Shown here piece after piece: positions 8,734 through 37,283 of a stretch of DNA of 64,000 nucleotides. The translations under genes and the position numbers were made by a program. A model generated the notes under the pieces. That model was not told where the DNA came from, ran no database searches, and saw nothing but the letters and a program-made list of their open reading frames with translations. This DNA comes from a virus: the IMG/VR virus record IMGVR_UViG_3300028610_000246; one strand, given 5' to 3'. How positions within the stretch are numbered: the first letter of the stretch is position 1; each line of letters starts with the position of its first letter.

Positions 8734-10122
8734 TCGCAGTTGATATGACTTATTTTCATATGTTCCTTAGCACTATCGATAAACCTCTGAAAATGCTCGA
8801 AGACTTGACTTGGGTCATCTAAGCGTACACTAGCTTGAAACCATGGATACGGATGACGACTATAAAATCGTATATACCACTTACCACCATGTCTATGTCT
8901 ATGTCTAACCGGTCGACACATGAAGAATAGCGATTTCTTCACAGCATTCTCAAATTAAAATACATTAGAACTGTAGCACTAACTGATAGACCCATCACTA
9001 ATCCTATAAAGTAGCCGGTCCAGAACAGTATTCCAGACGCCTCTTGAGAAAACCTTTTAATTACAGAGATCAAGCTTTTTATGGCGGAGTTCATGATATT
9101 CCTTGAAAAACTGTATATCTTTAGAGCAATTACCACCTTGGCCTAAACATTCGGCATAAGGTTCCATCTTTTCTATTACTGCTTTACAGGTCGTAGGCAA
9201 TAAATCATGTTGTAATCCCACAGTTATACCCAATATGAAGCATAAAATACACATAGATATGACTGCAGTATGAATTTTCCAATTATTCATTTATCCCAAC
9301 CCATTTGCTTACTAAGTACGGGACTCCAACCGCCTATTTCATCAAATCGCTCCAGCAATCGCTCTTGTATCTTTAGCTGCGCTTGTAGAAGGTCCTCAAA
9401 ATCTGGTTTACCGACAGCATCACGACCCGCTGAACCGAGAAATCTGTACCAATGAGCGAGCTGCCTATGACTTGCAGCTTCTACTTCTCTCATAGTCGAA
9501 TAGCTCATTGAAGAACTTCACCTGTTTCTACGTCCGTAACCTCTATCGGAGGCGCATTACGACGAACGACTCTAATAGCCTTGAATATGACAATTTGACA
9601 GTCGTCCTTTTCTACACAATATATGGCTTTATCAGTAGCCTCATCTTCAGAGGAGTAGAACTTCTGATTTCGAGTTCCAACTACTTTACCATTTACTACA
9701 TTGAGACTGTGAATTTTGTATAGATTCTTCAGTTCTAAATCACTCATTTCATCTTCCTCGTATATTATCGGGATATCCCCTCTACATACATCATAACGAG
9801 CGGGTTCACCCTTTTTATTACAATAGCCAGTGACACTTCCACCACTACTCGGTATCAACTCGAATACATTTTTTGGGCGGGTTATAGTATCTTTACTATA
9901 TACTCTTCGATAATGATCTTCGGCACAAGCAGACCCCATACTCCAGACCCAATCAATTCCCTGACCATTTGGATCCCATGGAGCGTGCTTTTGAGCCATA
10001 TGTCTATACCAATCGGCTCTGTCTATTCTAGACAACATCAGATGGGTATTAGACACTCTGCGATAGCCCCAATTAATGAGTTTATTGGCCTCTCTTTCTA
10101 CAGATGTTTGCTGATTCGTCAT
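8706..10122 (-). CDS. Small hypothetical genes (8706-8942, 8939-9136 membrane, 9057-9290 membrane, 9287-9508, 9505-10122)
   Basis: Abutting co-oriented ORFs. Confidence 0.65.
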
Positions 10123-10541
10123 ACGTGAGTCTCTCCGAATGGATCGATTACGACAACCCTCTTACCAAATGCTTTAGCATATCTTACGGTAGCCCATGTG
10201 CCGCTACGCGTTATTTCGTTGAGTTGAAGAGGTGTTGCTATTAGAATATCTGTAGCATCCACTATATCATGATTACGAGCTATATAGGGTTTAGGAGTGG
10301 ATATTTCTTGGAAATTCTTACAATCAGCTCCAAATTTAGTATTTTCCGGCGGATGATCCCAAATCTTAAAATCGAATACTTCGGCTAGATCGTGACATTG
10401 TTTATCTGAGCCCACACATACACCGTGATGCCATCGAAATTCGCCCGACATCTTATAATAACACAACATGATCTTAGCTAGAGCCGTATGTTGGGCTATA
10501 GTCATACCTTGTCGAGTACCTGTGAAGCCGATTTCAATCAT
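10119..10541 (-). CDS. SLOG-superfamily (DprA/Smf/YspA-like Rossmann fold) protein
   Basis: IGFTGTR, HGxCxGSD, ARNHDIVD, SGTWATVRYA motifs. Confidence 0.7.
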   Translation of the reverse strand: MIEIGFTGTRQGMTIAQHTALAKIMLCYYKMSGEFRWHHGVCVGSDKQCHDLAEVFDFKIWDHPPENTKFGADCKNFQEISTPKPYIARNHDIVDATDILIATPLQLNEITRSGTWATVRYAKAFGKRVVVIDPFGETHV

Positions 10542-10547
10542 AGGTAT

Positions 10548-10576
10548 ATTCTATCACAAATTAACACGAATGTATA
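10548..10576 (-). promoter_or_regulatory. Promoter TATACA-17-TAGAAT
   Basis: Directly upstream of the SLOG gene. Confidence 0.75.
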
Positions 10577-10718
10577 CTAGATCTTTAATCGATGAGCCCT
10601 TTAGAAGGTGATAACGATTCCATAACACTACCGCCTCGCTTCTAGAATTGGCTTTTCGCTCTGGACGGTTCTTTACCATCGAGATAATATTCGACATTAC
10701 CACCATCTAAAGAGCCTT

Positions 10719-10737
10719 AAAGGGGGCCGAAGCCCCC
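10719..10737 (-). terminator. UUCG-loop hairpin, probable terminator
   Basis: GGGGGC-TTCG-GCCCCC then TTT, downstream of 10791-11285; short U tract. Confidence 0.6.
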
Positions 10738-10790
10738 GCATTAAGGTGAATGCAGCACATTATGCCTGATGTGCCAGCAGGTCGTTCGGT

Positions 10791-11285
10791 TTACTCCTCG
10801 AGCATGCCTTCGAGGTCTTCGTCTGCAGCTGCTTCAGGAGCAACTTCAGCTTCCTCGTCACCACCCTCTTTAGCTTGACCGCGAGGTTTGCGATCAGCTT
10901 TTCGAACACCGGAGAGCTGTGACTCGCCGGCAGTTGTGGGCACGCCGTCAATCGCCTCAAACGCATCTTCAATTGCAACATCACGCGCATCAGCTTCGAC
11001 GGTGCTGTTTTCCGCGTTAACAGAAGCCGTAAAACGATCTTTGGCTTCCTGAATTTCAGCGGCCGTAAACGAAAGGTCGCTAGTTACGTACTTGAAGTTA
11101 CGATCTTTGCGGATGTCGTTGACTTTGCCGGGCGTAGTCGCAAATTTCTTTGCAATTTCGCCGTCTTTAGCCTCACCCGAGTTAAACTTAATCGCATACA
11201 CTAATGCAGCATGCATGCGACCGCGAGCGATACCAGCAGCCGGACCAGCCGGTACTGCCTCTACTACTTCTTGGTTTTCTGCCAT
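10791..11285 (-). CDS. Putative DNA-binding (HTH-like) protein with acidic tail
   Basis: EIAKKFATTPGKVNDIRK helix-turn-helix-like segment; Ala/Glu-rich; locally GC-richer; own promoter and terminator. Confidence 0.5.
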   Translation of the reverse strand: MAENQEVVEAVPAGPAAGIARGRMHAALVYAIKFNSGEAKDGEIAKKFATTPGKVNDIRKDRNFKYVTSDLSFTAAEIQEAKDRFTASVNAENSTVEADARDVAIEDAFEAIDGVPTTAGESQLSGVRKADRKPRGQAKEGGDEEAEVAPEAAADEDLEGMLEE

Positions 11286-11457
11286 CTCTTTACCCTCTAT
11301 GCGTTAGAGTCATACAACATGACGCCTATAACAGCTAGCGCCACCATGAGTAGGCCGATCTTATATGCAAGATAGACCGCTATTACCACGACAACTGGAG
11401 TCAATATTACAACGATTACTCTAATGATGAGCTGGCTCCAATCTAATCGTTAAGTTA

Positions 11458-11486
11458 ATTTTACTGCAATATAGTAAGAATGTAAA
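11458..11486 (-). promoter_or_regulatory. Promoter TTTACA-17-TAAAAT
   Basis: About 170 nt upstream of ORF 10791-11285. Confidence 0.6.
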
Positions 11487-11514
11487 CTGGTTCCTACAGG
11501 GAAAATTATTGGAT

Positions 11515-12084
11515 TTAAATCTGAAGGTATTCATAACCATAATCATATGCCACCTCAAAAAACTTATCAGAATCTATCGTCGATATAAATGGCGGCGAAC
11601 CTTTAATGCGCTTATTTAAATGAGGTAATCGACCAAATCTATCCGTATGTACGACTGGGAAGCCTTTTCGATTTTTGTATACTGAAGTCCACCACTGAAT
11701 AGCGGCTCCGACAAAATCTCCATCTTTCAAAAGGTCCATCCATAAACCAAATTCCGCAAGGTCCAAGATGTGTTTGTAAGTGAAACTACTTCTATCTACG
11801 TTCTTTAGTAATTCTGTAAGAGATATAACAGTCTTTATAGGATCACGAACAACTACTATGGTGAGATTGAATTTAGCATTAAGATTGTACGCATGTCGCC
11901 ACTCTACAGTACCATCTTTACCCGACTGTTCATGGCCAATATCTAGACCCTGATCTCTATAGTAAGTAGCTACAGACTTTGTTCCACTACGTGGACACCC
12001 AGTAAATAGGAGTGTACCAGTTTCTTGAGGTGGATAAGGCTCGTTCTCCATACCGTATCTATCCTGTTGGGGGCTTATGTTCAT
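11515..12084 (-). CDS. Sulfotransferase-family protein
   Basis: FTGCPRSGTK (5'-PSB loop) and VVVRDPIKTVIS (3'-PB motif). Confidence 0.65.
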   Translation of the reverse strand: MNISPQQDRYGMENEPYPPQETGTLLFTGCPRSGTKSVATYYRDQGLDIGHEQSGKDGTVEWRHAYNLNAKFNLTIVVVRDPIKTVISLTELLKNVDRSSFTYKHILDLAEFGLWMDLLKDGDFVGAAIQWWTSVYKNRKGFPVVHTDRFGRLPHLNKRIKGSPPFISTIDSDKFFEVAYDYGYEYLQI

Positions 12085-13493: not shown

Positions 13494-13964
13494 TTAAATG
13501 AGGCCTTCTATGGGATGTAGACCTGGAATATATATTGTGGCACCCGCTTGAGATCTATAGGCTGTAAGTTCTTCTAGGCGAATAGTCTGGTCATCCCAAC
13601 GAATACCGCAATGTACCCAAGAGCCAAGTTCATGGATAACTTGATCATATGGAAGGTTCATTGACTCAATTAATTTGGCTAATTCTAGAGGTGTAACTTT
13701 GTTACATCTCATATCGGCCGCACATCCAAATCGATGGGCCGACGTCTTCGATCCACCTATTAATGTATTTAGCAGTTCTGGACGAAAGCCAGACGTTATT
13801 GTAATAGGAGAGTCTAATTTTGTTCTTAATGGTTGGACTATTGTCTCTACTAGACGAATGATATTATTTTGGATATGTAGGGGTGGCGTCATATCGATAC
13901 CATTACGTACTGCAGTTTGTGACACCAAAAACTCTTCTAACTTGAAGTTCGTGCTTATAAGCAT
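13494..13964 (-). CDS. Peptidase M15A-family endolysin
   Basis: ITSGFR...GGSKTSAHRFGCAADM...WVH Zn-binding His/Asp/His pattern. Confidence 0.85.
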   Translation of the reverse strand: MLISTNFKLEEFLVSQTAVRNGIDMTPPLHIQNNIIRLVETIVQPLRTKLDSPITITSGFRPELLNTLIGGSKTSAHRFGCAADMRCNKVTPLELAKLIESMNLPYDQVIHELGSWVHCGIRWDDQTIRLEELTAYRSQAGATIYIPGLHPIEGLI

Positions 13965-25813: not shown

Positions 25814-27475
25814 ATGTCTAGATTATTACTGTCTTTAGGCCACAATTCCAGTGCAATACTGGTAGACGGTGGTCACATAGTAGCTGGATACGAAGAAGAG
25901 AGATTGTCTAAAATCAAGAGTGATAGCACGTTTCCACGACTAGCTATCCAGCAATTAGAAAAATTGCACACAGAAATGTTTAAAGACATATCTGATATAT
26001 ACATATCTCACTGGTTCGTAGACGGTACGCTACCAGAAATTCATGATAAATATTTTGATCCACTATATTTCGAGTTTAACATACCCAAAGCTAGAATTCA
26101 TTCTGTCAGTATGGATTTTACACATCATGATGCTCATGCATGGTCAGCATGTTCATTTATTGGACCGACATTCTCTAAAGAAAATACACTTATAGTGGTA
26201 GCTGACGGATTCGGTAATTTCGGTGAAACTATATCGTTGTACTGGCTAGGACATCACAATGAGCCAAAACTTATCCGAAGGTCCTTTGGCTATCAGTCTA
26301 GTCTAGGACTCATGTATCAGTACGCTACAGCGTTTTTGGGATTAAAAGAGAACCAAGACGAGTATAAGTTATTAGGATACGAAGCTCATATAAGTGATTA
26401 TTTATTGGACGAGGAAATAGAAAAGCTCCAAAGGTCCATCATACATAACGCTGATGTACATTTAGAGATCATCAATAGTCTAGATACCTTCGATAGATAT
26501 GATCCGTTACTAGCACTCGACGCACTACCAGCACTCAGAGTTCACTACGGAATTCACTTTCAAAAGGTCCTAGACAAATTAGACATCAACGACGTCTACT
26601 CAGATGATGCTAGACGAAGTATTATTGCATATTACGTTCAGTCTAGATTAGAATATAGTATGAAGACTATAGTATCGAAATATAAACCTATGAACCTAAT
26701 ACTAGTCGGCGGACTATTCATGAACGTCAAGCTAAATAACGAATTATCTAAGATGGTTAATGAAATCAGTATAATGCCATTAGCCGGTGATCAGGGCGCT
26801 GCCATAGGTCTATATCAAGCCATGGAGTCTGATTTCATATGGCCCGACCACTTAAATTGGGGTACTAGAGAGTTTTATAGTATTTTATGTGATAGATTAC
26901 ATATGTTTATGTGTGATGATCCTGTAGAATACACTCAATTTATAATAGATTTATTGAAACAAGACAAGATAGTCAACGTAATAAAGGGTAATATGGAGTT
27001 TGGAGCTAGGGCTCTAGGTAGCACTACTACTCTAGCTCTACCCAGTAAAGAGAATGTAGAGTATATAAACGAGCTCAATGGACGTAATACTATAATGCCG
27101 ATGGCACCTGTAGTAACTAGACGATCGGCTAATAACTTATTTGAGAATGTCGATAGAGTGCACCAGTCTCTAGAATATATGGTATGTACTAGAGATTATA
27201 GAACTATACCCGAAGAGTGTATGGGTGCTGTCCACTCTCTTCCTATATTCAGACTGAATTCAGCATCTAATCTTACAGGACGACCACAAGTCATAGATTC
27301 TAATCACTGGTTATATCCTGTACTAAAAGTAATGCCGCATGAGATGTTGATTAATACATCCTTTAATGAGCATGGAATGCCAATTTGTTATAGTATGCAA
27401 GACATCTTACGATGTCATCAATATCAGTTATCTAACGATCTACAAAATAGGGTTTATACGGTGATAGTGACATGA
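25814..27475 (+). CDS. Carbamoyltransferase (NodU/CmcH/TobZ family)
   Basis: EEERLSKIK, HHDAH, DGFG, GLMY, EYKLLG, GGLFMNVKLN, GDQGAAIG, MEFGARALG, NTSFNEHGMP. Confidence 0.9.
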   Translation: MSRLLLSLGHNSSAILVDGGHIVAGYEEERLSKIKSDSTFPRLAIQQLEKLHTEMFKDISDIYISHWFVDGTLPEIHDKYFDPLYFEFNIPKARIHSVSMDFTHHDAHAWSACSFIGPTFSKENTLIVVADGFGNFGETISLYWLGHHNEPKLIRRSFGYQSSLGLMYQYATAFLGLKENQDEYKLLGYEAHISDYLLDEEIEKLQRSIIHNADVHLEIINSLDTFDRYDPLLALDALPALRVHYGIHFQKVLDKLDINDVYSDDARRSIIAYYVQSRLEYSMKTIVSKYKPMNLILVGGLFMNVKLNNELSKMVNEISIMPLAGDQGAAIGLYQAMESDFIWPDHLNWGTREFYSILCDRLHMFMCDDPVEYTQFIIDLLKQDKIVNVIKGNMEFGARALGSTTTLALPSKENVEYINELNGRNTIMPMAPVVTRRSANNLFENVDRVHQSLEYMVCTRDYRTIPEECMGAVHSLPIFRLNSASNLTGRPQVIDSNHWLYPVLKVMPHEMLINTSFNEHGMPICYSMQDILRCHQYQLSNDLQNRVYTVIVT

Positions 27476-27909
27476 GCGAACCAACATACGTAAGTATTAA
27501 TAGACAGATGCTGAGTGTAATTGACTTTAACTTCAATATACTCGGAATACCTAAAAGGTCCTTAGGCTTACAGTCGGAGGACGAATTTCGATTATCTATG
27601 CATCAGCTTAGAGAAGAAATTGACGAGATAGAGAAGGCCTTTTCTCATGGCGACTTTATAGGTGTATTAGACGGTTTAGTTGACTTGGAATACTTCTTGT
27701 TAGGTATATTCTATAAGAGTGGTATAAATGAACCAACACATGCAGAATTATTTGATACAGTACATCAAGCTAATTCACTCAAAAAAGTCGGAGTTAAAAC
27801 CGGTAGAGAGGGATATGGAGCGGCAGATGCTGTAAAGCCAGAATCATGGGTTAATCCAGAAATTAAATTTGCTAGAATACTAGATCGAGTAAATAAACGT
27901 GGATCTTAG
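27472..27909 (+). CDS. MazG/PRA-PH-like nucleotide pyrophosphohydrolase
   Basis: LREEIDE...VLDGLVDLEY acidic motif; VHQANSLK...KPESW. Confidence 0.8.
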   Translation: MSEPTYVSINRQMLSVIDFNFNILGIPKRSLGLQSEDEFRLSMHQLREEIDEIEKAFSHGDFIGVLDGLVDLEYFLLGIFYKSGINEPTHAELFDTVHQANSLKKVGVKTGREGYGAADAVKPESWVNPEIKFARILDRVNKRGS

Positions 27910-28420
27910 CAGTAAAAAACGCTCTATAATTGTAGAGGGTGCCGACGCTACTGGTAAATCGACATTAGCTACAAAACTTGGACAACAGTACGGTATATAC
28001 ACATTTCGTGCCGGACCTAAACCCACTAGTACTAAGCATGCAGAGATGTGTATGTTGTATCAGAATATGTGGTTACATAATCAGAGTTGTGTATGGGATA
28101 GACACACTGGAATAAGTAATGTGTGTAATCTACCTGGACTAAGTAAGCAATCTACACGTATGCATGCATACTACGTAAAAGAGGCTCTACAGTATTCCCT
28201 AATAATAGTATGTACTGCTGAAAATTTAGACTCTCATAACCAAGAATCCTATGAGACTGGTGCAGATTTAGAGCGTGTACGTAAGGAACACTCTACAGTA
28301 TCTAACAACTATAAGAAAATGGCACATGACCTTCCCAGTGTAATACGATACGACTTTAAAATAAAGCCGTTTCAAACGTTGATTGAGGAGATAGACCGTG
28401 CGATTTCTATCAGTATATAA
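27899..28420 (+). CDS. P-loop nucleotide monophosphate kinase
   Basis: IIVEGADATGKST and WDRH, thymidylate-kinase-like. Confidence 0.75.
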   Translation: MDLSSKKRSIIVEGADATGKSTLATKLGQQYGIYTFRAGPKPTSTKHAEMCMLYQNMWLHNQSCVWDRHTGISNVCNLPGLSKQSTRMHAYYVKEALQYSLIIVCTAENLDSHNQESYETGADLERVRKEHSTVSNNYKKMAHDLPSVIRYDFKIKPFQTLIEEIDRAISISI

Positions 28421-29210
28421 GGATTTAAAGAGTAAGGGCTCTATAGTCTCACCCAGAGATCAAAAGGTCCTAGAGATACAGGACTACATGTTTACTATGG
28501 GTCCAAGAGATCGATTTACATCGTATTCAGCACGACATCTTAACCTAGACTATGCTAAATTTGAAATGGTGTGGTATCTAACAGGTGATAAATTAGACAA
28601 ACGCATAACCAAATCAGCAGCCATGTGGTCAGATTTACGACAGCCGGATGGATCATGGTTTTCTAATTATGGCCAATACTGGTTCGGTGATCCACAACAG
28701 GGTTTTGAATGGGTTATCAATCAACTATTTTCGGATAAGGATAGTCGTCAGGCAGTTATTCCAATGTTACATAGACGTAATCTATTTACTGGGAATAAGG
28801 ACGTAGTATGTACTCAGTGTATATCATTTCGTATACGAGATAACAAGCTCTATATGAGTGTTAACATGCGGAGTCAAGATGCCATATGGGGTATGACTAA
28901 TGACATATTCTGTTTCTCAGTATTACATGAAATGATATACGTAGTTTTACGTGACGGTAAATATCATAATCTAGTTATGGGATCATATACTCATAAAGTA
29001 GACTCATTTCACGTATACGAAAAACACTTTGGTATGCTAGATAGAATTATAATCGAAGGCCACGGTGGATATACTGAAATATACTGTCCAGAAATATATG
29101 ATAATCGTGAAGTAATGAATCTTCTCAACTATAAAGCGAGAGATTGCGTAGCACAACATCTATTTACGGAGTGGTTATATGAGAATAGATACTCGGATGG
29201 ACATCGATGA
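28398..29210 (+). CDS. Thymidylate synthase homologue, dCMP hydroxymethylase type
   Basis: DVVCTQ...IRD...VNMRSQDAIWGMTND matches the T4 gp42 pattern, with Asp at the specificity position. Confidence 0.8.
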   Translation: MRFLSVYKDLKSKGSIVSPRDQKVLEIQDYMFTMGPRDRFTSYSARHLNLDYAKFEMVWYLTGDKLDKRITKSAAMWSDLRQPDGSWFSNYGQYWFGDPQQGFEWVINQLFSDKDSRQAVIPMLHRRNLFTGNKDVVCTQCISFRIRDNKLYMSVNMRSQDAIWGMTNDIFCFSVLHEMIYVVLRDGKYHNLVMGSYTHKVDSFHVYEKHFGMLDRIIIEGHGGYTEIYCPEIYDNREVMNLLNYKARDCVAQHLFTEWLYENRYSDGHR

Positions 29211-29658
29211 ATACTTTACTAAAATGGTTCGTCTTGCTAGTTTACGTGGTGCCTGTATTCGTCGTAAAACTGGCTGTATCCTTGTTAATGATCGCAATCA
29301 TGTTATTGCTACTGGGTATAATGGTCGTTCTAGCGGCGTGCGTAACTGTCTTCAAGACCCTTGCGGAGGTAGCGAAATGGATTCTGGATTGGGTCTGGAG
29401 CGATGCGAAGCTATACACGCCGAAGCAAATGCTCTTCTCCAGTGTCCAGATGTATTTACGATTAAAACGGTGTATTGTACGACTGCTCCGTGCATTCACT
29501 GCGTCAAACTCTTAACTAATACTTCTTGTGATAGAGTAGTATTTTTAGACACATATCCACATGAATCAGAAAGTGAAAAACTGTGGATAAAATCAAACCC
29601 ACTTAGATTGTGGGAACATTGTCCTGAGCAATTAGATTTTATCGGAGAACAGAGATGA
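29179..29658 (+). CDS. dCMP deaminase family protein
   Basis: TGYNG, HAEANA, TAPCIHC Zn motifs. Confidence 0.9.
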   Translation: MRIDTRMDIDEYFTKMVRLASLRGACIRRKTGCILVNDRNHVIATGYNGRSSGVRNCLQDPCGGSEMDSGLGLERCEAIHAEANALLQCPDVFTIKTVYCTTAPCIHCVKLLTNTSCDRVVFLDTYPHESESEKLWIKSNPLRLWEHCPEQLDFIGEQR

Positions 29659-30188: not shown

Positions 30189-31271
30189 ATGCGTACGAAA
30201 GATGTTAAGTTGTACAAAGTAGACAAAAACGGCTCAGAGCGTCTCTGGACCATAAAAATATACGACAACACCATCGTTATCCAGTACGGTCAGTTGGGTG
30301 GAGCTATGCAGACGCAGACAGAGACAGTAGACAAGGGACTGGCTAGCCGCACTCTTGACGAACAGTTACTTAGTAGAGTAAAATCTAGGGTTAATAAGCA
30401 GCTAGATAAAGGTTACAATAAGACATTGGAAGATGCTCATAAAAATAAGGGTAAAGACGCGTCTGGAAACATCAAGCCAATGCTAGCTCAGCCGATCAAG
30501 AGAATATCGTATATAGATTGGGAAACTGCCTTTACTCAATGGAAGTATGACGGCCATCGTATGATGGTGGAGGTGCAAGATGGACAAGCTAGGGCTTGGT
30601 CAAGACTCGGTAAACCTATTACTTCAGTTCAGCATATTTTGGATCTTCTTTCTAAGCTTCCTAGCGGCACTATTCTGGACGGTGAGCTATACCATCATGG
30701 TACTCCATTACAGACAATTGCTTCTTGGGTCAAGAGGAGTCAACCTGAGTCTAACAATCTTATCTATATTATATTTGATATGGTACATCCCGCACCTTTT
30801 ATAGAAAGATTTAATGGTATACAGATGAGATTAAATTCACGTGATATGAATAATAATCCACATATTCAAATAGCTACTACTGGTAAGATTAATAACTCTG
30901 AAGCCATAGGTCCTAATCTCAGATATGCTATAGATCAGGGATATGAGGGCTTGATACTACGACACAGTACTGCGTCATACGAAATAGGCACAAGGTCCAG
31001 ATCGTTAGTCAAGATCAAGCAAATGTTCGATTCTGAATTTAGATGTATAGCAATAAATGAGTCAGCAGACGGGTGGGCCGTCCTACAATGTGAAGACGGT
31101 GCGGGTCGTAAGTTCAATGTATCTGCACCAGGAACCATAGACGATAAGAGGGAAGTGCTCTATAACGCAGACGAGTATATCGGTCGAAGCATCACAGTAG
31201 AATATAGTCAATTGACTAAAGATAAAATACCGTTTCATCCCGTAGCCATTAGATGGAGAGAAGACGTATGA
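30189..31271 (+). CDS. ATP-dependent DNA ligase with WGR-like N-terminus
   Basis: KYDGHR, LDGEL, IFD, EGLILR, VKIK and OB-fold TVEY motifs. Confidence 0.9.
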   Translation: MRTKDVKLYKVDKNGSERLWTIKIYDNTIVIQYGQLGGAMQTQTETVDKGLASRTLDEQLLSRVKSRVNKQLDKGYNKTLEDAHKNKGKDASGNIKPMLAQPIKRISYIDWETAFTQWKYDGHRMMVEVQDGQARAWSRLGKPITSVQHILDLLSKLPSGTILDGELYHHGTPLQTIASWVKRSQPESNNLIYIIFDMVHPAPFIERFNGIQMRLNSRDMNNNPHIQIATTGKINNSEAIGPNLRYAIDQGYEGLILRHSTASYEIGTRSRSLVKIKQMFDSEFRCIAINESADGWAVLQCEDGAGRKFNVSAPGTIDDKREVLYNADEYIGRSITVEYSQLTKDKIPFHPVAIRWREDV

Positions 31272-31798
31272 AAACGTATCTGAAAATATTGCATATACTC
31301 AGCTGGATTCCCATATTCGCTATAAACATAGTGCTATGGATCATGGGCATATTCGTAGTAAGCTGGTATGCTAGAGACCCTATGGATTCATGGCCTAAGT
31401 GGACATGGATTTGGCAAAATGACGAAGACCAGGGAGAACCACTCTGGTACGTGAAAAAATATCCCGACCGATCTCCATGGTTACGTCGATTTTTGTATAT
31501 GGCATTTCGTAATCCAGTCAATAACCATAGATTCATATTTGAAGATAAGACTACGTGGTATACTGATGGTGATCTTGATGCCTTCGATACAGAGGGTAGT
31601 GACCTAGTACGTCGTGGTATAGGTATGGCAGCCGGATGGCGTTGGGCTGGAGCGTTTGCAGGATATAGACGAATTTGGTTAAATAGTTCAATCAAGTACT
31701 CAGAGTTCTACATAGGGTGGAAGGTCGGATCTAGCGTTCCAGGACTCGGGTTCACATTCCAACTTAGGCTAAAACGTGACTTCATCAGGGGACTATAA
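31268..31798 (+). CDS. Trp-rich membrane-anchored hypothetical protein
   Basis: N-terminal TM segment, RNP motif; start probably 31268 (ATGA overlap). Confidence 0.6.
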   Translation: MKTYLKILHILSWIPIFAINIVLWIMGIFVVSWYARDPMDSWPKWTWIWQNDEDQGEPLWYVKKYPDRSPWLRRFLYMAFRNPVNNHRFIFEDKTTWYTDGDLDAFDTEGSDLVRRGIGMAAGWRWAGAFAGYRRIWLNSSIKYSEFYIGWKVGSSVPGLGFTFQLRLKRDFIRGL

Positions 31799-31800
31799 CC

Positions 31801-32310
31801 ATGGTCAACAAACTACTTAATAATCCACCACTAGTTCGGATAGTGATATACATACTCATAGCCATAATGTTACTCTGGTTATGGCTCGGTGAAAGGGCAG
31901 AGGCGGAAACAATTGTTGGCATTGGGCCCGCGTTTGTTTCTGGACATTACTCAGATACGCTGGCGATCACCATAAACGAGCGCTTCGGCGGACGTTGGGA
32001 AATCGGCCTCATGCTCGTTGGAGAACAGACCACTAAACACGATCAGTTCGTCGGTAACAACTTTGCCTTTGGCGCACGTTTGATTGTGCCATCGCCTAAG
32101 AAGCGATTTGAACTTGCCTTCGGTGGCTCAGTTTGGGCCGAACAAAATACTGTAGTCTCTTGCGAAAGCCGATTTACACTTACAATAGGCATAGCATGGA
32201 ACATTCGTCGCGGACCGTGGAATCTGGCGATAGACCATGCGTCGACTGCTGGAGTATGCAAACCAAATCCTGGACAGAACATACTATCGATCAGGAGAAA
32301 ATTCGGATGA
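31801..32310 (+). CDS. PagL-like (lipid A 3-O-deacylase/acyloxyacyl hydrolase) outer-membrane beta-barrel
   Basis: Signal peptide ending AEA, amphipathic strands, HASTAGVCKPNPGQN like the PagL HxSNAG..KPNxG motif, near-terminal Phe. Confidence 0.7.
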   Translation: MVNKLLNNPPLVRIVIYILIAIMLLWLWLGERAEAETIVGIGPAFVSGHYSDTLAITINERFGGRWEIGLMLVGEQTTKHDQFVGNNFAFGARLIVPSPKKRFELAFGGSVWAEQNTVVSCESRFTLTIGIAWNIRRGPWNLAIDHASTAGVCKPNPGQNILSIRRKFG

Positions 32311-32678
32311 GTAACTACGGAGAAAGTCTTGTACTAGACCTAATCGACTGCAATCCAGAGACGTTTACTCGCATAAACATCAAGATGTTGTGCTGTGGAC
32401 TTTGTGATATAATTGACATGGAACGGGAGGACCTATATTTTTGGGATTATGAGGGCGCGCAGGAAGAGTATCAAGAGGCTCCCGACCACCTGAAGGGGAC
32501 ATCTGCCGTTCAATTCATCCGTACTAGTAGTCTAGTAATTCACACTTTAGATGTTACACGTCAGGTATTCATAGACTTATTTTCTTGTAAAACATTCGAC
32601 CATAACGTTGTCGCAGAATATGTGACAGTATTTTTTGAGGGGAAGATCAATGCACAACATTCATTCACGCGCGGCTGA
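32307..32678 (+). CDS. speD: S-adenosylmethionine decarboxylase-like pyruvoyl proenzyme
   Basis: LVLDLIDC, GTSAVQFIRTSSLVIHT (cleavage site), IDLFSC; true start is MSNYG at 32307. Confidence 0.75.
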   Translation: MSNYGESLVLDLIDCNPETFTRINIKMLCCGLCDIIDMEREDLYFWDYEGAQEEYQEAPDHLKGTSAVQFIRTSSLVIHTLDVTRQVFIDLFSCKTFDHNVVAEYVTVFFEGKINAQHSFTRG

Positions 32679-33675
32679 TCTGGTAGGAGTTCTAATTATC
32701 CCTACAGGAGTCGGCGCTGCTATAGGCGGCCATGCTGGCGATGCTACGCCTGTGGCTAAGTTACTGGCGGCCTGTTGTGATTGGCTGATCGTTCATCCAA
32801 ACGTAGTCAATGCATCTGACATAAACGAAATGCCTATAAATGCACTCTATGTAGACGGCTACACTCTCGATCAAGTACTATCTGGCAAAGAAGGGCTTAA
32901 AAAATGTCAGCGCCAGAATACGATTCTAGTAGTGGCTAATGATCCGATACATGGCAGTACCGTTAACGCAATTAATGCAGCACGTACGACTATAGGTGCT
33001 GACATACAGCTAATTGCACTCAAAACTCCTTTGACCATGAGTGCACATATTGATACAGACGGAACTGCATCTGGCGTCGTAACTGGAGTTGATGAGTTAG
33101 TAGAGCAGCTCAAATCTCTAGAATATGACGCGTTAGCTATTCATACCCCAATTATTTGTTCAACAGACGTAGAAAAATATTATTGGGACAATGGCGGAGT
33201 GAATCCATGGGGCGGAGTAGAGGCCAGAGCGTCTAGAATGATATCCACAAGGATTCGAAAGCCAGTAGCACATGCACCACTAGACCTTGAAGATAAGCCG
33301 GAGTTTAGAAACTTATACTGTCAATCAGTAGATCCACGTATGGCAGCAGAAGTAATATCTAACTGCTTTTTACACTGCGTCCTAAAAGGATTGCATGACT
33401 GTCCTTTGCCTACAAATTATATACCAGAGGCTGATTGGACGATAAGTGATATTGATTTCATCGTTACTCCCTTCAATGCTTACCCTAATGATGCTTTATT
33501 TGTAGTGAAGAGAGGTGCTAGACTGATTCGAGTAGCTGAAAATATAACAGTATTTGACGATATGCCGTATCTACCTGGAGGAGAGAGCGTAGCGAATTAC
33601 TTAGAAGCTGCAGGGTTAATTGTGTGCATGAGAGCTGGCATAACATCAGATTCAGTACGCTTATTAACTCGATAG
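32650..33675 (+). CDS. DUF3326-family protein
   Basis: LIIPTGVGAAIGGHAGDA, HPNVVNA, NPWGGVEA, AAEVI, NYLEAAG; likely start 32650. Confidence 0.75.
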   Translation: MHNIHSRAADLVGVLIIPTGVGAAIGGHAGDATPVAKLLAACCDWLIVHPNVVNASDINEMPINALYVDGYTLDQVLSGKEGLKKCQRQNTILVVANDPIHGSTVNAINAARTTIGADIQLIALKTPLTMSAHIDTDGTASGVVTGVDELVEQLKSLEYDALAIHTPIICSTDVEKYYWDNGGVNPWGGVEARASRMISTRIRKPVAHAPLDLEDKPEFRNLYCQSVDPRMAAEVISNCFLHCVLKGLHDCPLPTNYIPEADWTISDIDFIVTPFNAYPNDALFVVKRGARLIRVAENITVFDDMPYLPGGESVANYLEAAGLIVCMRAGITSDSVRLLTR

Positions 33676-34626: not shown

Positions 34627-34944
34627 TCATACTACGGTAACAGTCATAGTCTGAACACCTTTAGGATTAGAGAAAGGGACATTTGCTGGTCTGACCTCCG
34701 GACTCGACTCATTGCCCTTCGTATCTACTACGATACATCTAAATTCCCAATCACCTGGGTCCATATCAAGTACGTTCACCTCTTGAGGCGCCGTTGGAGC
34801 TATCCTAGGAGGAATGGGAGTCCATGTAGGTGCACCGACAACCCTAAACGAAACATCTACACCCGCAATTTCTTCTACAGGTAAAGGACGATTATTCTCT
34901 CTTTCAACAGGGAGAGTCCATTTTACTAATACATCACCACTCAT
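34627..34944 (-). CDS. Fibronectin type III-like protein
   Basis: VKWTLP...Y/F...GDWEFRCIVVD..GNES. Confidence 0.65.
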   Translation of the reverse strand: MSGDVLVKWTLPVERENNRPLPVEEIAGVDVSFRVVGAPTWTPIPPRIAPTAPQEVNVLDMDPGDWEFRCIVVDTKGNESSPEVRPANVPFSNPKGVQTMTVTVV

Positions 34945-35056
34945 TCTATCACCTCTATAGTCATACTCGTTATTGGCTTAGGTCGATTACGTCTCTTATC
35001 CGAACCTTGCAACCTTAACAGGGTCCTTACGTACTGAATAAATGCCTTTATACAGA

Positions 35057-35623
35057 TCATTCGCAAGAGGCTACTACTACTGTCGACCTGACTGATCCGA
35101 ACCATGATTCTACCTTGTCGACGGGAACTACGTGACGTTTATCGACCTCGTTAATTCCACGTATGTATTGATCTGGATCGCATGGCGACCCTATGGGTGC
35201 AGTGCCTACTGCAGACATCAGCAGTATATCGTCACCCTTCGATATCGAGTACACAGTCTGCTCGATCGTCAGCATAGTTGGTGGCATCGGTACTAGCGGC
35301 GGTATAGTCTTAACAGCCTCATTGGAAAAATCACTTTCTTGTACAGGATTCGCACTGTTATAGGCAGTCGATACGAAGTAGTACGTATCACCCTCAGTCA
35401 AGTTTGGTATTGTAAGTGTCGTTACCGTAGGATCAGTTATATCTATTGTTACTGGATACGGACCGCCCAGTGTCTGGCCCATATAGATCTTGAACCCTGC
35501 AAGGTCCGTTAGGGGCGTACCGTCAGTATTTTGTATCGGTGCTACCCAATTTAATACGACTTCACCTGCATGCACCATAGAAGGTAATAGGTATAGTAAT
35601 ACGATAATTAGCTTATTCATCAT
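35057..35623 (-). CDS. Fibronectin type III-like protein with signal peptide
   Basis: Signal ending VHA; LNWVAP..NTDGTPLTDLAGFKIY...YYFVSTAY..ESDFSN. Confidence 0.7.
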   Translation of the reverse strand: MMNKLIIVLLYLLPSMVHAGEVVLNWVAPIQNTDGTPLTDLAGFKIYMGQTLGGPYPVTIDITDPTVTTLTIPNLTEGDTYYFVSTAYNSANPVQESDFSNEAVKTIPPLVPMPPTMLTIEQTVYSISKGDDILLMSAVGTAPIGSPCDPDQYIRGINEVDKRHVVPVDKVESWFGSVRSTVVVASCE

Positions 35624-37283
35624 TATCTCTTCTCAATAAATGTTTCCAAATATCTTCCAACTTATCTCGTATCTTACTGTGCTGCTCATCCATCTTACGA
35701 TGCATTTCACCATGTGCCTTAGAATTTTCTTCATCTAACTTATCTAATTTTTCATCTTGTCTAGATTCAATACAGTACCACCACCGAATAAAACCAGAAA
35801 TCATGGCTAATAAGATGATGACTACTATGCCTATCACCCATTGTACCCAGCTTTCAGTCATCATTATGCCCAGCCAATAATCGTAACGTAGCCTTGACGT
35901 CACCGTTTAATTCTCTAATAGCATCACCATTGGCTTTAACACTGGCCTCAACGTCCTTTACATTATCTACAAGAACCGCTAAACTAGTGTTACCTGTCTC
36001 TATAGCAATACCCTCTTGAATCTTCTTTTCAATCCATAACTCAGAATATGCGAATAACGCTACAGCTACTACGGAATATATTGGCCACCCTGCTAGTAGA
36101 CGCTCTACAAGAGTGCCTACGTTCTTAGCTGCTTCATTTTCAGAGGTCATCTTCAATCTCCTGCTCAACAATTTTTTCGTATATCTTGTTAAATGCAGCC
36201 GCTTTTTCTGCTTCTTCTACTTTATGAATTTCTTGCTTTTCTTTCAGTTCTTCAAATTCTTTAATTTTAGATTCACGAGAATCTAACTCATCTTCTAACG
36301 AATCTATCTTGTTCTGCTGCTGAGCTATACGATACTCAATCTGTTTCTGCTGCTCTTCATACTCTTCCTGAGTTATGTCGGCCATCAACCATCGCTCGTC
36401 ATACTTAGCAGCTCTGTCGTAAATTTCTCCAAGGTCCGGAGATACGTCGATTAAACCTAATTCTACTAGTGATAAATGATCGAATTCCATACATATCTCA
36501 TTACCCCAATTCTTACGAATTGTCTTTATACTACACATAAACATATACGCAGTAAATACATGACTATTCTGCTGTGCTTCTTCTGCAGCCTTCCAAAGAT
36601 CACACGTAGGTGTCCATGATCTTGGAATGGGTACGCCCAGAGCCCAAGCACCCGACGTATTGGCACCACTTATACCGAATACTCGTCCACACGCCTCTAC
36701 CTGATTAGTCTGATGTAGGTATATGCTGGGCACCTGCCTTGTCTCATTAAAGGCAATGCTCTGTTCATTACCAGTATTGACGGCACTAGATGTAGAGCTC
36801 TGACTTTGACTCTGATCTTGATCTTGATTTTGATCTTGATCTTGAACTTGTTCGCTACTACTCCCTATAATATCATCATGGCCACATTGACGATGCCCTC
36901 TGCGACAATCGTCATCATACTCTTCAGCCCAAATAAACGGGCTGAAGAGTAACAATACCACAAATAATTTATTCACTTGGAGACCCTTCACCATTCGCTC
37001 CCGGAGTTGGCGGTGGTGATAATGGTTTTAAACTTACTGGAGCACCTTGTAAACCATTTGGATCAGTATCAATTCCAAATTCACCTGACGCCAATGCTCT
37101 AAGTAACCACTTTAAGTCTACAATACCATCAGAATATTTAATAGGTGCATTCACAGTTTCATCAGTCAAGAACTGTATACCTCCCTGAATAGCACGAAGA
37201 ATCTTCTGCTGAGTTATTTGATTCTGCATCTGACGCTGTTGTGGTGATAATTGTTGTTGTACTTGCTCTGCTGGTCGATTCAT
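35613..37283 (-). CDS. Membrane, secreted and hypothetical genes (35613-35903 and 35854-36171 TM+coiled coil; 36140-36994 signal peptide; 36969-37283)
   Basis: Hydrophobic N-terminal segments; a QD repeat in 36140-36994. Confidence 0.6.

Follow-up and report, generated by a model that had tools for sequence, protein, structure and literature searches.

PagL, known from Pseudomonas aeruginosa (PA4661; crystal structure 2ERV), Salmonella and Bordetella and represented by the Pfam family PF09411, is an eight-stranded outer-membrane barrel that uses a His-x-Ser motif to remove the 3-O-acyl chain of lipid A. Its conserved Asn has an oxyanion-hole role (PMC4402001). Another barrel serine hydrolase of the outer membrane, OMPLA (PldA) of Escherichia coli, carries the triad His142-Ser144-Asn156 on the barrel exterior, at the level of the outer leaflet (PMC5043575). 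Here we describe a PagL-like gene, P0001, in a 64,000-nucleotide stretch of viral DNA (IMG/VR record IMGVR_UViG_3300028610_000246; the whole stretch is called the window below). The explanation that we favour, with moderate confidence, is that with this gene the phage makes a PagL homologue that acts as an acyl hydrolase in the outer membrane. Other phage enzymes directed at outer-envelope lipid or lipopolysaccharide (LPS) are the O-antigen acetylases and glucosyltransferases of temperate phages and the mycobacteriophage enzyme LysB, which cleaves outer-membrane lipid linkages; they differ in acting on O-antigen sugars or mycolyl-arabinogalactan, in having unrelated folds and in belonging to lysogenic-conversion or lysis modules. 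Keyword searches of an open-access literature library returned no description of phage-encoded PagL homologues. PagL itself is well known; what is new here is a variant active site, His-Ser-Asn with the oxyanion position occupied by Thr, which a small clade has kept.

Homology to PagL and predicted fold

The gene and the features of its product are as follows.

31801-32310, + strand: PagL-like gene P0001, an open reading frame (ORF) of 169 amino acids (aa)
31801-31905, + strand: predicted Sec signal peptide, residues 1-35, with a hydrophobic core at about 13-29 and A-E-A at 33-35
32236-32247, + strand: His146-Ala-Ser148-Thr149 (codons cat gcg tcg act), the catalytic His/Ser pair followed by Thr in place of the oxyanion Asn
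32266-32280, + strand: Asn156-Pro-Gly158-Gln-Asn160 (codons aat cct gga cag aac), the P-N-x-G motif with Asn160 at the triad-acid position

An initial annotation, made from the letters alone, had read this ORF as a phage-encoded PagL-like lipid A deacylase from its hydrophobic N-terminus, an HAS-TAG stretch and a following KPNPG. Each of these features is present in the sequence: the hydrophobic stretch spans residues 5-33 on the Kyte-Doolittle scale, His146-Ala-Ser148-Thr149-Ala-Gly occupies 32236-32253, and Lys-Pro-Asn156-Pro-Gly158 occupies 32260-32274. The relationship to PagL was also borne out by a family profile, by the fold and by the alignment of the catalytic His and Ser. The protein matches PF09411 with 31.6 bits against a gathering score of 23 (E-value 2e-7, profile positions 24-132 of 136), as do 63 of 65 relatives. 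When the window protein was searched as a single sequence against the sequences of the Protein Data Bank, PagL was not found; the profile built from the 65 relatives did retrieve the crystal-structure sequence 2ERV (E-value 1.7e-7), with the family residues H, S, N and D aligned to residues 126, 128, 129 and 140 of that chain (H, S, N and E). PHROGs and NCBIfam contained no family for the PagL-like protein. A close relative bears the automatic UniRef name 'Acyloxyacyl hydrolase', and the ESM Atlas neighbours found by features and structure are PagL or acyloxyacyl-hydrolase clusters of Pseudomonadota.

The AlphaFold model built on the family alignment has a mean predicted local distance difference test score (pLDDT) of 91.9 and a predicted template modelling score (pTM) of 0.82. 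It comprises an N-terminal helix at residues 10-29 and then eight strands, the first from residue 35, so that the comparison with PagL proposed in the initial annotation came out in favour of the eight-stranded barrel. The best solved structural match is PagL itself (2ERV), at 14% identity in the structural alignment. With strands alternating from a periplasmic N-terminus, the outer end of strand 7 would carry His146 and Ser148 and the outer end of strand 8 would carry residue 160. The resemblance to PagL thus extends over barrel type, size and predicted signal peptide; it also includes the H-x-S-x-A-G...P-N-x-G motif, which lies where strand 7 ends and in the last loop, and a third triad residue 12 positions past the Ser. 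The differences are that the window gene is phage-encoded, that overall sequence similarity is low, and that the oxyanion Asn is Thr and the triad Glu/Asp is Asn. The window protein also belongs to a separate phage-borne family, which has a conserved N-terminal N-N-P motif and signature residues of its own, Glu60, Gln76 and Asn87; the sampled bacterial homologues rarely or never have Glu60 and Asn87, while Gln76 occurs in 16 of the 36.

The putative signal peptide was compared across the family as well. Its A-x-A site (A-E-A, 33-35) is kept in the family consensus, which reads E-A-x-A-E-T at this place, and a lipoprotein reading was ruled out because the window protein lacks a Cys where the signal peptide ends. 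A K-L-(L/F)-N-N-P-K motif, K-L-L-N-N-P in the window protein, is conserved in the n-region (31801-31830), with Asn8 present in at least 90% of the 22 closest relatives; Sec signal peptides do not usually show conservation ahead of their hydrophobic core. Phe168, an aromatic residue near the C-terminus, is likewise found in at least 90% of these relatives.

The active site of the window clade

To compare active sites we used an alignment of 224 rows, made up of 178 metagenomic family members, 10 full-length IMG/VR ORFs and 36 sequences from bacterial genomes. Both the His and the Ser are present in 223 of the 224. At the oxyanion position the alignment has 204 N, 11 T, 5 S and one each of M, Q and C, with one gap; the 178 metagenomic rows have 158 Asn, 11 Thr, 5 Ser and one each of Met, Gln and Cys. 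At the triad-acid position the counts are 208 D, 13 N and one each of E, T and P, with 162 Asp, 13 Asn and one Glu in the metagenomic rows. All 46 IMG/VR and bacterial ORFs have Asn and Asp at the two positions, the motif by which they were retrieved having demanded both.

Most members of the phage family therefore keep the canonical Asn and Asp, and it is the clade of the window protein, P0001-P0004, that departs from them and reads His-Ser-Thr/Met-Asn. The replacement of the conserved Asn by Thr, pointed out in the initial annotation, was confirmed: Thr149 aligns with 2ERV residue 129 (PagL Asn129), and the same position is Met in P0004, a relative of 71% identity. In addition, Asn160 of the window protein takes the place of the acid that completes the triad, which is Glu140 in PagL and Asp in most family members. 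Outside the clade the two changes are combined in a single cluster only, P0068, which has Ser plus Asn.

The loss of both accessory catalytic residues raises the question of whether the barrel has little or no catalytic activity left and serves simply as an outer-membrane protein, for instance by blocking or mimicking a receptor and so excluding other phages, or by binding LPS without cleaving it. Small non-enzymatic eight-stranded outer-membrane barrels are common in phages, as matches in BFVD indicate, and the drift of the oxyanion position to Thr or Met within a near-invariant stretch would fit such a role. A dead enzyme would, however, be expected to lose its His or Ser, and the retention of His146 and Ser148 in all close relatives, as in nearly the whole alignment, weakens this explanation. 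The C-terminal active-site stretch is moreover the most conserved part of the protein, nearly invariant apart from the Thr/Met position. We therefore regard a barrel without catalytic function as quite unlikely.

An Asn as third member of the triad has a direct precedent in OMPLA, another acyl hydrolase of the outer membrane, where the H-x-S-x11-N spacing is the same as that of His146, Ser148 and Asn160. On this analogy the window site is probably active, though possibly changed in rate or specificity. The resemblance may concern the mechanism of the active site and not family membership: OMPLA is a 12-stranded, calcium-dependent dimer whereas the model of the window protein has 8 strands, there is no detectable sequence relationship between the two proteins, and OMPLA is absent among the structural matches listed.

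The same likeness bears on the substrate. A protein of the same fold and location could act on something else, namely glycerophospholipids or lysophospholipids in the outer leaflet, or a different LPS ester, either at another position or of an O-acyl group. The composition and spacing of the triad, equal to those of OMPLA, would suit this, as would the confinement of the Asn-to-Thr/Met and Asp-to-Asn changes to the window clade, the modest score against PF09411 and the distance of the phage family from its bacterial homologues (140-189 against 34-89 bits on the phage-family profile). On the other side, the best solved match is PagL and not the dimeric 12-stranded OMPLA, the P-N-x-G loop shared with PagL is invariant, and nothing positive indicates a phospholipid substrate. 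A substrate other than that of PagL is in our view unlikely, and lipid A remains the preferred candidate.

A phage-borne family and its genomic contexts

The window encodes terminase, portal, major head, tail tube, tape measure and tail fibre proteins as well as a primase-polymerase, DNA polymerase A and a ligase. These structural and replication hallmark genes agree with the initial description of the deacylase as phage-encoded and identify the window as DNA of an uncultured, siphovirus-like tailed phage. Its host is probably a Gram-negative proteobacterium, because the major head protein is about 60% identical to its counterparts in Acinetobacter, Pseudomonas (PaMx28-like) and Variovorax siphoviruses. 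That the phage is non-temperate, as had also been suggested, is plausible, no unassigned ORF of integrase size being present within the 64-kilobase (kb) window; it is unproven in so far as the 67-kb contig extends beyond the window by about 3 kb. The late genes (terminase, portal, major head protein, tail tube, tape measure and a central fibre of 3470 aa) are on the - strand. A + strand block at 14.6-34.5 kb holds genes for the primase-polymerase, DNA polymerase A, an SNF2 helicase, a carbamoyltransferase, a thymidylate-synthase-like protein, the ligase, the PagL-like protein, an S-adenosylmethionine (AdoMet)-decarboxylase-like protein and a DUF3326 protein. Within this block the PagL-like ORF starts 2 nucleotides past the stop of the upstream ORF, and its own stop overlaps the start of the next gene (ATGA, 32307-32310); the gene is therefore embedded in a tightly packed operon. 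The genes around it that matter for what follows are these.

30189-31271, + strand: ATP-dependent DNA ligase, two genes upstream (PF01068, PF14743)
31253-31798, + strand: upstream neighbour, a DUF7338-like single-pass membrane protein of 181 aa (phrog_2143, E-value 1e-7), with a transmembrane segment at 9-40
32307-32678, + strand: downstream neighbour with overlapping start, S-adenosylmethionine-decarboxylase-like (PF02675, E-value 7.7e-11)
13494-13964, - strand: endolysin (phrog_894, E-value 2.7e-38), 18 kb from the PagL-like gene

The immediate neighbours are not kept in close relatives. The 181-aa upstream protein shows no similarity to the genes upstream of the PagL-like gene in locus L001 or L073, and the AdoMet-decarboxylase-like gene is not similar to the downstream gene of L001; a conserved pairing with either neighbour was accordingly rejected. 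A ligase gene does recur one or a few genes upstream of the PagL-like gene in L001-L005 and in the contig of P0003. Between the window and L001 the PagL-like proteins are 85% identical and the nearby DNA ligases just 22%. Given this difference and the unrelated immediate neighbours, the PagL-like gene has the behaviour of a movable accessory gene that is conserved while the genomes around it diverge. Purifying selection on the protein is strong: for the homologues with available DNA, the ratio of nonsynonymous to synonymous substitution rates (dN/dS) is 0.08 between the window and L001, 0.13 between the window and L073 (71% identical) and 0.17 between L001 and L073, with synonymous sites saturated at a dS of about 1.2-1.5.

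An exhaustive single-sequence search retrieved 74 representative clusters at E <1e-3, and a profile search 118 clusters, all of them metagenomic, with longest contigs of up to 105 kb. This phage PagL-like family, to which the window protein belongs, thus sits on uncultured contigs that carry phage hallmark genes, and every family context examined was phage-like or contained phage genes. Searches of 50,697 GenBank phage records gave no match, either by tblastn with the window protein, P0078, P0034 and P0060 or by blastn with the 8 kb around the PagL-like gene. Loci were recovered with a degenerate DNA motif for H-x-S-N-A-G-x3-P-N-x-G-Q-D, which returned 13 IMG/VR contigs and 44 bacterial genome contigs. 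On the phage-family profile most viral ORFs score 140-189 bits and bacterial ORFs 34-89 bits, and 2 label changes are enough to account for the bacterial rows in a FastTree phylogeny; the gene was on these grounds rejected as bacterial cargo or a prophage gene. The bacterial sample of the tree was picked by motif and is hence biased; from the tree, one origin of the bacterial rows is possible.

The bacterial contigs (L029-L072) carry chromosomal PagL-family genes with the motif in Ramlibacter isolates, Steroidobacteraceae, Chromatiaceae and other gammaproteobacterial metagenome-assembled genomes, and a Chromatiaceae-like group, at about 80-89 bits, is the bacterial set closest to the phage family. 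Two shorter and divergent IMG/VR ORFs of 142 aa (L019, 1355-1783; L020, 2612-3040) have the PagL motif and score 34 bits on the phage-family profile; they may represent a second, independent acquisition by phages.

The location of the gene was also considered with regard to lysis. An enzyme of this kind might loosen the outer membrane late in infection, as an alternative or helper to spanins and in a manner comparable to LysB. Two loci lend some weight to this idea. L011, a 33-kb contig with a serine recombinase, has at 9864-11705 a 46-aa transmembrane ORF, the PagL-like P0021, a 58-aa transmembrane ORF, a CHAP-domain (endolysin-like) gene and an 83-aa ORF with a long hydrophobic stretch; this phage looks temperate and P0021 looks like part of a lysis cassette. 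In L014 the homologue lies directly after a GTA_holin_3TM gene. The window gene, however, is in a replication operon on the strand opposite to the late genes, with the endolysin far off on the other strand. No lysis family was found in the Pfam tally of 44 neighbours from 11 IMG/VR loci, which comprises portal, terminase, adaptor, polymerase, ligase, exonuclease and primase-helicase families, or among the 25 PHROG families listed. A lysis-cassette reading was therefore rejected for the window phage, and we consider an accessory function in lysis very improbable. The initial annotation had proposed superinfection exclusion, easier lysis, vesiculation or altered immune recognition as possible roles. 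Of these, easier lysis is accordingly unsupported by the window gene order because the endolysin is 18 kb away, and altered immune recognition is not obviously relevant to a phage from environmental sediment or the subsurface.

Further observations concern other parts of the window. The ESM Atlas neighbours of the 181-aa upstream protein are DUF7338 viral clusters (score 0.93, a lead only), one of them automatically named 'Holin family protein'. At 32307-33675 the AdoMet-decarboxylase-like ORF, translationally coupled to the PagL-like gene, overlaps a full-length DUF3326 ORF (E-value 8e-70). A carbamoyltransferase (PF02543/PF16861) is grouped with thymidylate-kinase-like and thymidylate-synthase-like ORFs at 25814-29658, which looks like a cassette for DNA base hypermodification. 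The single ORF of 3470 aa at 37369-47781 matches the central tail fibre J at its N-terminus (phrog_31, E-value 4.5e-79), and the remainder, about 2400 residues, has no assignment. Downstream of this tail fibre gene are several small ORFs (34627-36994, - strand). By eye, one of 284 aa begins with a hydrophobic stretch resembling a signal peptide and has a low-complexity tract of Q/D/S and a strongly charged E/K-rich tail, and two of 105 and 96 aa have hydrophobic stretches. Two others have weak or apparent similarity to fibronectin III (tool match with an E-value of 0.006, below threshold), the first of them with a signal-like N-terminus by eye. No family could be assigned to any of these small ORFs.

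Proposed pathway and its significance

If the protein is a PagL-type acyl hydrolase, as we favour, its precursor would be exported by Sec and cleaved after Ala35, and the host β-barrel assembly machinery (BAM) would insert the mature protein into the outer membrane as an eight-stranded barrel. According to the topology of the model, His146 and Ser148 atop strand 7 and Asn160 atop strand 8 would then face the outer leaflet. With His146 activating it and Asn160 orienting it, Ser148 would cleave the ester bond that attaches an acyl chain to a lipid of the outer leaflet; given the homology to PagL, this chain is most probably the one at the 3-O position of lipid A. The translational linkage to replication and nucleotide-metabolism genes points to synthesis from early or middle infection, in which case LPS packing would be remodelled while the cell is intact. 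The operon position suggests such remodelling of an intact surface, rather than a terminal lysis function, in the window phage. Plausible effects would be an altered adsorption or entry, either of rival phages or of the progeny of the same phage on debris, or an outer membrane weakened in advance. In P. aeruginosa, mutations in htrB2, a gene of lipid A secondary acylation, raise the susceptibility to the RNA phage PP7, as reported in a study of genome entry at the outer membrane (PMC10783630); the acylation state of lipid A can thus matter for phage infection.

Several points weigh against this pathway. The cleavage site of the signal peptide was placed by eye only. Both accessory catalytic residues of PagL are swapped, and since the combined double change is nearly confined to the window clade, the activity could be reduced, altered or lost. 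Finally, the position of the gene varies across the family, which occurs in replication modules, beside packaging genes, after tail genes and, in L011, in an apparent lysis cassette, and the genomic context therefore does not fix a role.

A broader proposal, which we put forward tentatively and hold to be possible if doubtful, is that Gram-negative tailed phages carry a widespread outer-membrane lipid A or lipid deacylase family of their own, a mobile accessory that rewrites the lipid anchor of the host surface in the course of infection, and that in the window clade the active site has become an OMPLA-type His-Ser-Asn one that may act on a new substrate. The family has many members and is strongly conserved, and none of the four members tried had a match in deposited phage genomes; an entire class of function thus seems to have escaped characterisation. 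To our knowledge, LPS modification by phages is directed at O-antigen sugars and is found mostly in temperate phages. Editing of lipid A or other outer-leaflet lipids by an apparently lytic phage would extend the control of the envelope to its lipid core, and it could affect superinfection, vesicle release and the breakdown of the outer membrane. The Thr/Asn variant provides a natural experiment on the requirements of a PagL-type active site. If true, the proposal would add a new layer to the warfare between phage and host at the cell surface, one that edits lipid rather than sugar.
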